Positions 14,833-16,959 of a stretch of 64,000 bases of DNA are shown piece by piece (position 1 is the first letter of the stretch; the number at the start of each line of letters is the position of its first letter). The stretch spans positions 160,001-224,000 of IMG/VR virus record IMGVR_UViG_3300024331_000007; one strand, 5' to 3'. A program made the translations under genes and the position numbers. The stretch is from a virus. Taxonomy: Duplodnaviria > Caudoviricetes. A model generated the notes under the pieces. The model made no database searches. It had not been told where the DNA came from and worked only from the letters and a program-made list of their open reading frames with translations.

Positions 14833-14904
14833 CGCAGTGGTTCGGGGTGCTGTCCTCATATTGAGGCCCGTATATTGCTTACGTCTACCAGTGAATCCAC
14901 TGCG
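14833..14904 (-). ncRNA. structured tRNA-spacer element (tRNA-like, no T-loop)
   Basis: 8-bp terminal stem CGCAGTGG/CCACTGCG enclosing CGTA/TACG and CCTCA/TGAGG hairpins. Confidence 0.45.
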
Positions 14905-15520: not shown

Positions 15521-16078
15521 TTATTTAGCACACGAAACATGTCTCTTTGCCGTCCATGTGTCTTTTGCACCATTTTTGTGCTCATTTACCCATTTTATTA
15601 TGTATTCCTTCAACTGTTTATGCCATTTTACTTTGTCAAAACCAGTTGGAGTCCAATGTTGACTGTCACTTCTCTGCGCATTCTGCAAATACTCGTTAAT
15701 CTCACCTGTCATTGATACCATCGGCAAATAAATCCAACGAGGTGTGTAAGCAAAAGACAGCTTATCAGCAAAACACAACTGAGAAGGGTCTTTATCATGC
15801 TTTTTGGCATAGTATCGACTATGATACAGGCAAAAATCGCCCCATTTGTCGCCAAACAGTTTGCGCATAATTCCTGCGCCAAATTCTACGTGTGTCTCGC
15901 CTTCTGGTCCATCCATGTTTGGTTTTCCAAAATAGCCAAAATCGTGTACAAAAAATGCAACCCATAATCTAGGGTCTAATGGAAAACCATACAACTCATA
16001 CCACGCTCGTGCCACAAAAAATGGATGTAGGAAAAAGCAGTGAGCGCCAAATAAAACGCTCTTTGTTCCAATTCTCAT
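15521..16078 (-). CDS. HD-superfamily phosphohydrolase-like protein
   Basis: H...VHDFGY...H...YHSR...ADK pattern; SD GAGG. Confidence 0.6.
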   Translation of the reverse strand: MRIGTKSVLFGAHCFFLHPFFVARAWYELYGFPLDPRLWVAFFVHDFGYFGKPNMDGPEGETHVEFGAGIMRKLFGDKWGDFCLYHSRYYAKKHDKDPSQLCFADKLSFAYTPRWIYLPMVSMTGEINEYLQNAQRSDSQHWTPTGFDKVKWHKQLKEYIIKWVNEHKNGAKDTWTAKRHVSCAK

Positions 16079-16090
16079 AATCCTCAAATG

Positions 16091-16325
16091 TTTGGGGATT
16101 CTTCAGAGACATAGTGTGAATATAAAACTGAAGAATCCCTCAAACGGGGGAGTCAACGGTTTCGGGTCCGTTAACGCCTCTCCACCAATCGGTTAGAATG
16201 AACCGATACATTGGGCAAATAGCTCAGAAAATTCTCTGAACGATTTACGTCTACCACTCAGTCAAAAATGGACTGAGACATTGCCGATGTAGCCCCGCTC
16301 CACTCACTCGTACGGAGTGAGACGA
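16091..16325 (-). ncRNA. candidate structured ncRNA (about 7 hairpins)
   Basis: ORF-free 235 nt containing GGGATTCTTCAG/CTGAAGAATCCC, GTTAACGG/CCGTTGAC, TCGGTT/AACCGA, TCAGA/TCTGA, CTCAGTC/GACTGAG, CTCACTC/GAGTGAG. Confidence 0.6.
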
Positions 16326-16490
16326 TTAATGAAATAAATTTAATGCGTTCTTCAATGTAATTAAGGCATTCGCCGCATTACATGCCGCTTGAGAGAAACG
16401 CATTGAATCTTGTGAATCCTGCGCTTCCGAAGCCTTTTTAATTAAGGCTTCAACTTGTTTTGCTACTGTTTCATTCATTGTTTCATCCAT
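16326..16490 (-). CDS. 54-aa protein (not in ORF track)
   Basis: MDETMNETVAKQVEALIKKASEAQDSQDSMRFSQAACNAANAL...; SD GGAG. Confidence 0.6.
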   Translation of the reverse strand: MDETMNETVAKQVEALIKKASEAQDSQDSMRFSQAACNAANALITLKNALNLFH

Positions 16491-16594
16491 TGGGTTTTAT
16501 CTCCAAATTGTGACGTTGTGTTACGTTAATGATATTCCACGGCAAAACATTGAAACTTTTGGTTATGTGGAACGGCTTCATGAACTTATATCTA

Positions 16595-16623
16595 AGTATG
16601 CCCTATATTTTAGACAATGTCAA
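16595..16623 (-). promoter_or_regulatory. sigma70 promoter
   Basis: TTGACA-17-CATACT. Confidence 0.65.
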
Positions 16624-16626
16624 CTA

Positions 16627-16959
16627 CTATATTCGAAACGGAGGTTGAAATAGCTTACCATAATGTTTCTGAACAACTTGCAACATTTTTTTACGACCAG
16701 ATGGATTTGCGCTGTGAACTTGAACACCATTCACTGGCCAAACATTGTTTTCTTCCATCCAACACAATATATCGTAACCAGTTTTTTCTTCATCAGCATA
16801 ACCCATTGTTTGGGTCATATTCAAATCGTGATCAAGTGACGCAACTTCGACTTCTCCTGTCGCCAGAAGTTCAATTGCCTCTTCGTATGTTTTTACCCAC
16901 ACCGCGCCTATTGCGCCGTGATGAAATGGGTTTCTTTGATCGTCCAGCCACAGAAACAT
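16627..16959 (-). CDS. cyclic-phosphate-processing receiver-like domain protein
   Basis: LWLDDQR, SLDHDL, TGYDIL, VHSANP motifs. Confidence 0.85.
   Translation of the reverse strand: MFLWLDDQRNPFHHGAIGAVWVKTYEEAIELLATGEVEVASLDHDLNMTQTMGYADEEKTGYDILCWMEENNVWPVNGVQVHSANPSGRKKMLQVVQKHYGKLFQPPFRI

Follow-up and report, generated by a model that had tools for sequence, protein, structure and literature searches.

The element described here is carried by a 359,890-nt IMG/VR phage record (90% complete, ~52 tRNA genes) whose source is a giant soil phage of ~360 kb; "the window" refers to the whole 64,000-nt stretch of this record that was analysed. A preliminary description of the window had pointed to an interval of ~235 nt, packed with stems, as a candidate noncoding RNA (ncRNA) next to a tRNA cluster. 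The interval indeed lies between a 54-aa open reading frame (ORF) and an HD-domain gene (likely ATG at 16078), and all of the named stems were recovered within 16090-16323, e.g., a 12-bp stem formed by 16095-16106 and 16128-16139. Three stems that had been listed as separate are copies of one module, GU + 7 bp + UGG, a repetition missed at the time. Read in the direction of the minus strand, the locus contains the following features:

16627-16959, minus strand: cREC_REC receiver-domain gene, upstream, a neighbour in the phage family
16595-16623, minus strand: sigma70-like promoter, TTGACA-17-CATACT, agreeing at 10/12 positions (the region has as many such sites as expected by chance)
16326-16490, minus strand: 54-aa ORF, inserted between the promoter and the RNA, with no homologue in any fetched locus
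16303-16323, minus strand: stem A of module 1, GU + 7 bp with a 5-nt loop, a strict-pattern match
16282-16302, minus strand: arms of module 1, starting UGGA (anti-UCCA), with host tRNA-Thr(GGU) and tRNA-Gly as predicted targets
16257-16279, minus strand: stem A of module 2, GU + 7 bp with a 7-nt loop, a strict-pattern match
16212-16256, minus strand: arms of module 2, starting UGGUAGAC, the 3' arm facing generic tRNA 5' ends (cofold ~-5)
16188-16209, minus strand: stem A of module 3, GU + 7 bp with a 6-nt loop, covarying across 10 homologues
16175-16187, minus strand: left arm of module 3, UGGUGGAG, complementary to tmRNA nt 69-76 including CCA
16146-16164, minus strand: right arm of module 3, predicted to form 17 bp with host tmRNA nt 1-18
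16090-16145, minus strand: long 3' hairpin of 12 + 5 bp (z -7.8), likely the 3' boundary or a processing stem
15521-16078, minus strand: HD-superfamily gene, downstream, syntenic in the phage family

The promoter at 16595-16623 is the nearest candidate start; a transcript initiated there would include the 54-aa ORF, with the RNA as its 3' region. The predicted folding energy of the interval is -93.3 kcal/mol for the minus strand, a value reached by 0/200 shuffled sequences (z -6.2), and -84 kcal/mol for the plus strand (z -5.2). A minus-strand RNA, previously favoured from G-U wobbles, is also favoured by the homologues, among which the gene-sense fold is the better one in 9/10 loci and sigma70 promoters lie upstream in several. 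TTGACA promoters on the module strand are positioned 12-22 nt before the first module in three loci, and similar ones occur in L104, L200, and L378. The earlier failure to assign a family was borne out by a search of Rfam 15, which gave no gathering-score match and only chance-level matches at E<=10; none of its covariance models, including those of GOLLD, ROOL, hatchet, T-box, and tmRNA, matches the element. The hatchet ribozyme was discarded on that ground; look-alike words in modules 1 and 2 are absent or rearranged in homologues. The suggested likeness to the GOLLD, ROOL, and T4 species RNAs was not supported, as the element is a variable array of small antisense modules rather than one ornate fold. 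Taken together, these data support a conserved, covarying minus-strand ncRNA without a known family, and it is virtually certain that the feature is real.

Homologous loci were reached via the downstream HD protein. BLASTN of the element against GenBank phages returned no similar DNA, and DNA-pattern scans of IMG/VR were mostly noise, yielding, among the matches listed, one new lineage, L368. In total, 24 modules were counted in ~12 phage loci, with module boundaries set by our own choice. Each consists of an A-rich stretch, GU, a 7-bp stem (stem A) with a 4-8-nt loop, UGG, and then the arms. The array in the window has three modules and the 3' hairpin; its relatives have 1-3 modules and span ~85-330 nt. 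The GU is kept in 23/24 units and seven perfect pairs in 22/24, and the basal pair takes four forms. Stem A of the terminal module, aligned across 10 homologues, is paired in 98.6% of cells, with double-sided changes at 6/7 pairs; this covariation, which the preliminary description had proposed to look for, was reached by 0/500 shuffles, a count that is not a probability since the homologues are related sequences. The strict pattern GU + 7 bp + UGG occurs four times in the 360-kb genome, three of them within 140 nt here, against 0-3 per genome under a Markov null. A long hairpin closes most of the homologous arrays, and the hairpin sequences are unrelated.

Within a syntenic clade, the gene order is cREC gene, RNA, HD gene, tRNA-Gln, and tRNA-Thr, and the module is present in every locus of this clade with enough upstream DNA, the exception being L201, where only 106 nt are available upstream. 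HD homologues outside this clade have no module. The tRNA cluster noted earlier does adjoin the element in the window; such closeness is not essential, because the unrelated phage L368 carries the module beside a tmRNA with no tRNA gene in its 8-kb contig.

The anatomy of the module recalls type I-C CRISPR repeats. Cas5c substrates have a 2-nt overhang, a 7-bp stem, and U22-G23-G24, with G21U tolerated (PMC8524198), and RacrIC1 is a precedent for an RNA anti-CRISPR of type I-C (PMC10651486). Like these, the element is an array of 2-nt GU overhangs, 7-bp stems, and UGG, and the regularity of the GU and of the seven pairs matches the substrate. The array could thus copy the 5' part of the repeat and either titrate host Cas5c or be cut by it into antisense units. 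Type I-C arrays exist in Acidobacteriaceae, and, as noticed post hoc, the consensus of the stem is similar to the I-C handle read as its reverse complement (7.9/11 Watson-Crick positions, 11/11 at genome 28948). Unlike the repeats, the element has no AUUGAAAC handle, its stems vary, as do its loops (just 5/24 measure 5 nt), it shares 8-15 of 24 nt with the host repeat, and its "spacers" are complementary to tRNA ends. In addition, Cas5c is present in only 5/32 candidate hosts and absent from the phage genome, and the arms would be left unexplained. As an account of the whole element this is improbable; an added, Cas5c-related role of stem A is somewhat easier to entertain, though still doubtful.

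The arms point elsewhere. UGG is the complement of CCA, and the bases after UGG are complementary to tRNA 3' ends. The host of the window phage is probably a member of the Acidobacteriaceae, as the best genome matches of the phage SOD fall there. In Acidobacteriaceae, tmRNA has the 5' end GGGGGCG and the 3' end CGCCUCC-ACCA, and the last module always starts with UGGUGGAG, which is complementary to nt 69-76 of tmRNA and also to some tRNA-Ala. In the window, this sequence is followed by a 2-nt bulge and three further possible pairs, and the left arm fits tRNA-Ser ends equally well, with wobble. The left-arm match to tmRNA extends over 14 nt in L100, 13 nt in L199, and 16 nt in L368; up to the lengths seen in L100 and L368, the arm tracks the tmRNA end rather than that of tRNA-Ala. 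In the window, the right arm is predicted to form 17 bp with host tmRNA nt 1-18, with one mismatch and one bulge; the pairing energy is -31.9 kcal/mol (p=0.002 against shuffled sequences), and the best tRNA reaches -20.3. Across loci, the fit between the module's 3' half and the 5' end of tmRNA has p<=0.04 in 7/9. Predicted pairing with both ends of host tmRNA was found in 11/11 loci.

When both arms were scored, host tmRNA ranked first among 45 host tRNAs and ~50 phage tRNAs for 9/9 terminal modules (in the window, -53.8 vs -39.5 for the next best), and it did so again for L378 and L368, which were found after the hypothesis had been formed. Cofolding of the two-arm clamp with host tmRNA ends gives a net -11 to -22 kcal/mol; these pairing energies are ViennaRNA values calculated for trimmed tmRNA ends as bare, unmodified RNA with neither SmpB nor EF-Tu present, and tmRNA is abundant and protein-coated in vivo. 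Compared with tmRNAs of several phyla, the window arms fit those of Terriglobus, Acidipila, and Terracidiphilus best (-53.8 vs -38 to -49.5, with L512, L514, L515, and L517 left out), which is weak evidence for the host because the 7-bp core of the arms is common to many phyla.

The two arms pair weakly with each other. An A-C mismatch between them, opposite the G3-U70 position, is kept in 11/11 loci, although replacing one C by U would restore pairing; where the base opposite tmRNA G1-G5 is not C, it is U in 10/10 cases, which still allows a wobble pair. Both patterns fit an antisense strand-exchange partner and not a sense mimic. We consider it very probable that the last module has been selected to pair with host tmRNA.

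A sense mimic has points of its own. The plus strand of the window reads as the 5' and 3' ends of tmRNA joined (GGGG/CUCC, G3-U70, ACCA) and folds almost as well, so that it could soak up SmpB or AlaRS as a mini tRNA-like-domain (TLD) mimic, and the TLD-only RNA of mycobacteriophage DS6A, which inhibits tmRNA, provides a precedent (PMC4131195). Such a mimic would have no T arm; a hairpin abuts the CCA; A-C mismatches at positions 1, 4, or 5 break the G1-C72, G2-C71, G3-U70 acceptor in several homologues; and the promoters and G-U pairs favour the other strand, all of which makes the mimic very unlikely. That phages pick up ssrA fragments (PMC9004378) would also allow a neutral relic, the debris of inverted tRNA or ssrA ends at an integration site. 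This has next to no chance of being correct, given that stem A covaries strongly, that a single short unit matches both ends of tmRNA, that the arms are kept while spacer lengths vary, and that the unit recurs in an unrelated phage.

The phage's own tmRNA bears on the antisense reading. The window phage encodes a two-piece tmRNA with a different tag; its gene shares the strand of the element and lies 30 kb further downstream. Its acceptor stem is GUGGGUG/CACCUAC, and those of its relatives are GGGUCCG/CGGAUCC (G001) and GGGACCG/CGGUUCC (G002); all three keep G3-U70 and are mismatched to the module, with net cofold values of -2.4, -4.7, and -3.0 kcal/mol, respectively, where host tmRNAs give -13 to -19 kcal/mol. 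In L368, the escape is only partial (own tmRNA -9.7, host tmRNA -22.0). Each of the four phage tmRNA acceptors is re-coded in a different way, and the phage Ala tRNAs are without the CUCC end. The module and a permuted two-piece tmRNA occur together in 4/4 searchable records and are both missing from five related records, three of which are incomplete; as 10/11 loci belong to one phage family, this co-occurrence amounts to about two independent events. L368 is an unrelated phage of 58% GC, with the module ~90 nt before its own two-piece tmRNA and no HD gene, and two of its relatives have neither module nor tmRNA behind the same nuclease gene.

Based on these comparisons, we propose that the element encodes an array of antisense RNA modules acting in trans, which would serve as a strand-exchange clamp, disabling host tmRNA while the phage tmRNA replaces it, and we put the probability of this reading at roughly two in three. 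Once transcribed, the array would use toehold strand exchange to capture host tRNA-like molecules by their acceptor ends. The single-stranded UGGU of the last module would pair with the free ACCA of host tmRNA and stack on stem A; in the acceptor stem, the left arm would next invade the 3' strand, leaving the freed right arm to pair with the 5' strand and also with the D-loop region. The A-C mismatch and the G3-U70 wobble would thereby become two Watson-Crick pairs, which would drive the exchange. This double branch migration would open the acceptor stem and cover the D-loop region, which is used by SmpB. A clamped tmRNA would be neither alanylated nor loaded, so that host trans-translation would be shut down or thinned, and the clamp would probably act on uncharged or newly made tmRNA, because charged, EF-Tu-bound ends are shielded. 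The re-coded two-piece tmRNA, with its G3-U70 kept, would then take over ribosome rescue with its own tag, presumably using host SmpB, as no SmpB was found in the window phage genome. Stem A has its own sequence consensus, for which the clamp model gives no explanation.

Pairing of UGGN with NCCA is also how the T-box discriminator/antiterminator recognizes tRNA, with an adjacent helix available for stacking of A76 (PMC7583486). The UGGN of the element is complementary to NCCA in the same manner, and one could picture a cis-acting sensor whose leader is refolded by uncharged tmRNA or tRNA on UGGN, thereby controlling the HD gene and the downstream tRNA-Gln/Thr operon. In line with this, the HD gene follows the array in 10 loci, and the long terminal hairpin, which carries a U tail in some of them, could be touched by a freed C-rich arm. 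However, no locus has Stem I with a specifier, the 7-nt T-box bulge, or the RRRxG-Stem III-AA motif; the Shine-Dalgarno lies outside the hairpin, and the sequence holds no obvious terminator or RBS switch; the downstream gene is not fixed, being different in L199 and L368; 3-5 bp cannot open an 11-17-bp stem; and the re-coding of the phage's own tmRNA would be left unexplained. We therefore regard a T-box-like sensor as unlikely. The element, by comparison, reads no anticodon and is predicted to invade and swap the acceptor stem, apparently in trans, with tmRNA as its main target.

Two other systems are close to the clamp. The primer-binding site of retroviruses and LTR elements likewise starts with UGG, unzips the acceptor stem (together with the T stem) of one tRNA, and is preceded by a hairpin. 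The element differs in having a second arm for the tRNA 5' end, and the 90%-complete phage genome has no match to the reverse transcriptase family PF00078, a search that a very divergent enzyme may escape. Phage tmRNAs, both the two-piece (Melnitz, PMC9004378; RF04321) and the TLD-only DS6A type (PMC4131195), resemble the proposed clamp in that a phage would interfere with trans-translation, and the element-bearing phages carry two-piece tmRNAs too. These are sense copies, whereas the element would be their antisense partner, coupled to a re-coded acceptor stem of the phage's own.

In the upstream modules, the clamp design would be directed at particular host tRNAs (Thr and Gly, and Pro at a second genome site). 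Module 1 has a 12-nt match to the 5' end of tRNA-Thr(GGU), its best host fit (cofold -18.1, median -3.7), and a 10-nt match to the 3' end of tRNA-Gly; four phage tRNA-Thr genes lie just downstream of the element. The first modules of L200 and L104 fit tRNA-Gly, and the left arm of the module at genome 28948 (L383) fits host tRNA-Pro. The 3' arm of module 2 is complementary to the generic GGGC..UAGCUCAG 5' ends of tRNAs (Ala, Val, Ile, and Arg); modules 2 of this type, starting UGGUAGAC, occur in three loci and are weak in cofolding. These targets are predictions, several of them weak, and are much less secure than the tmRNA assignment.

The HD protein belongs to a family of >2,100 homologues with invariant H13, H18, H45-D46, H63, H86, and D105. 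It had no Pfam family over the cut-off and no close solved structure; Foldseek gave no hit at E<=0.001, and the best VIA hit had Z 6.3, all being generic HD folds. By fold comparison, the protein is assigned to a generic HD fold at the superfamily level. The gene is not required for the module, since L368 has the module without it. A cyclic-phosphate receiver domain and an HD hydrolase as neighbours, together with the existence of toxins that modify the CCA end (toxSAS and MenT), could suggest a protection or guide RNA, which would shield uncharged 3' ends from CCA-attacking toxins or present ends to the HD enzyme or a ligase for repair. Unzipping the acceptor stem would itself inactivate the target, the phages' own tmRNAs avoid the clamp, and the HD protein matches at the superfamily level only and is missing in L368; we consider such a role highly unlikely.

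Beyond tmRNA, the clamp may exemplify a programmable, arrayed class of phage "anti-tRNA" RNAs, in which a GU-stem-UGG scaffold carries exchangeable arms that pick host tRNAs or tmRNA by their acceptor ends, re-coded phage copies separate self from non-self, and Cas5c-type cutting possibly releases the units; we see the chances of this generalization as evenly balanced. If it is true, the phage would replace the host's ribosome rescue, along with some of the tRNA pool, by its own. In Rfam and in the literature searched, where coverage of subscription journals was limited, we found no description of such an RNA family or of a host-tmRNA-clamp tactic. It has long been asked why phages carry their own tmRNA and tRNAs despite the host supply; known phage tmRNAs number in the hundreds, and their roles have only been guessed (PMC9004378). 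A disabled host copy and a resistant phage copy would mean replacement rather than supplement, a direct and testable answer, and would add a new mode of RNA-RNA recognition, in which the wobble that marks alanine identity drives a double strand exchange. Trans-translation is recognised as a target for antibacterials, and a short RNA that inhibits it would be a useful tool.

Several further observations were made during the analysis. RNA model R1 had no match among the 150 candidates scored in each of five Acidobacteriaceae genomes. A fourth module, the one at genome 28948 (locus L383, G000:C1:28895-28955, minus strand), lies directly behind its own TTGACA promoter; over 11 nt, the 5' strand of its GU-stem is identical to the reverse complement of the type I-C crRNA handle. 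The leader of the 54-aa ORF contains, in a hairpin loop (16536-16545, minus strand), 8 nt complementary to the end of the universal crRNA handle, and as a whole folds no better than chance. Between two tRNA-Thr genes of the window lies a tRNA-like element (14833-14904, minus strand) with an 8-bp closing stem (z -2.8), which has a 12-mer in common with module 2 and is without stem A, an R1 match, or a clear target. L368:3757-4190 is a compact cassette of module and two-piece tmRNA between the nuclease gene and structural genes, and its tmRNA has a long tag that, by our reading, ends in Ala-Ala. The two-piece tmRNAs at L346 (G001:46761-47029) and L349 (G002:39533-39773) have non-canonical T loops and are missed by ARAGORN and detected by RF04321. 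Finally, ARAGORN identified two CUA-anticodon tRNAs and one UUA-anticodon element at G000:C1:24352-25279, which are possible stop-codon suppressors.
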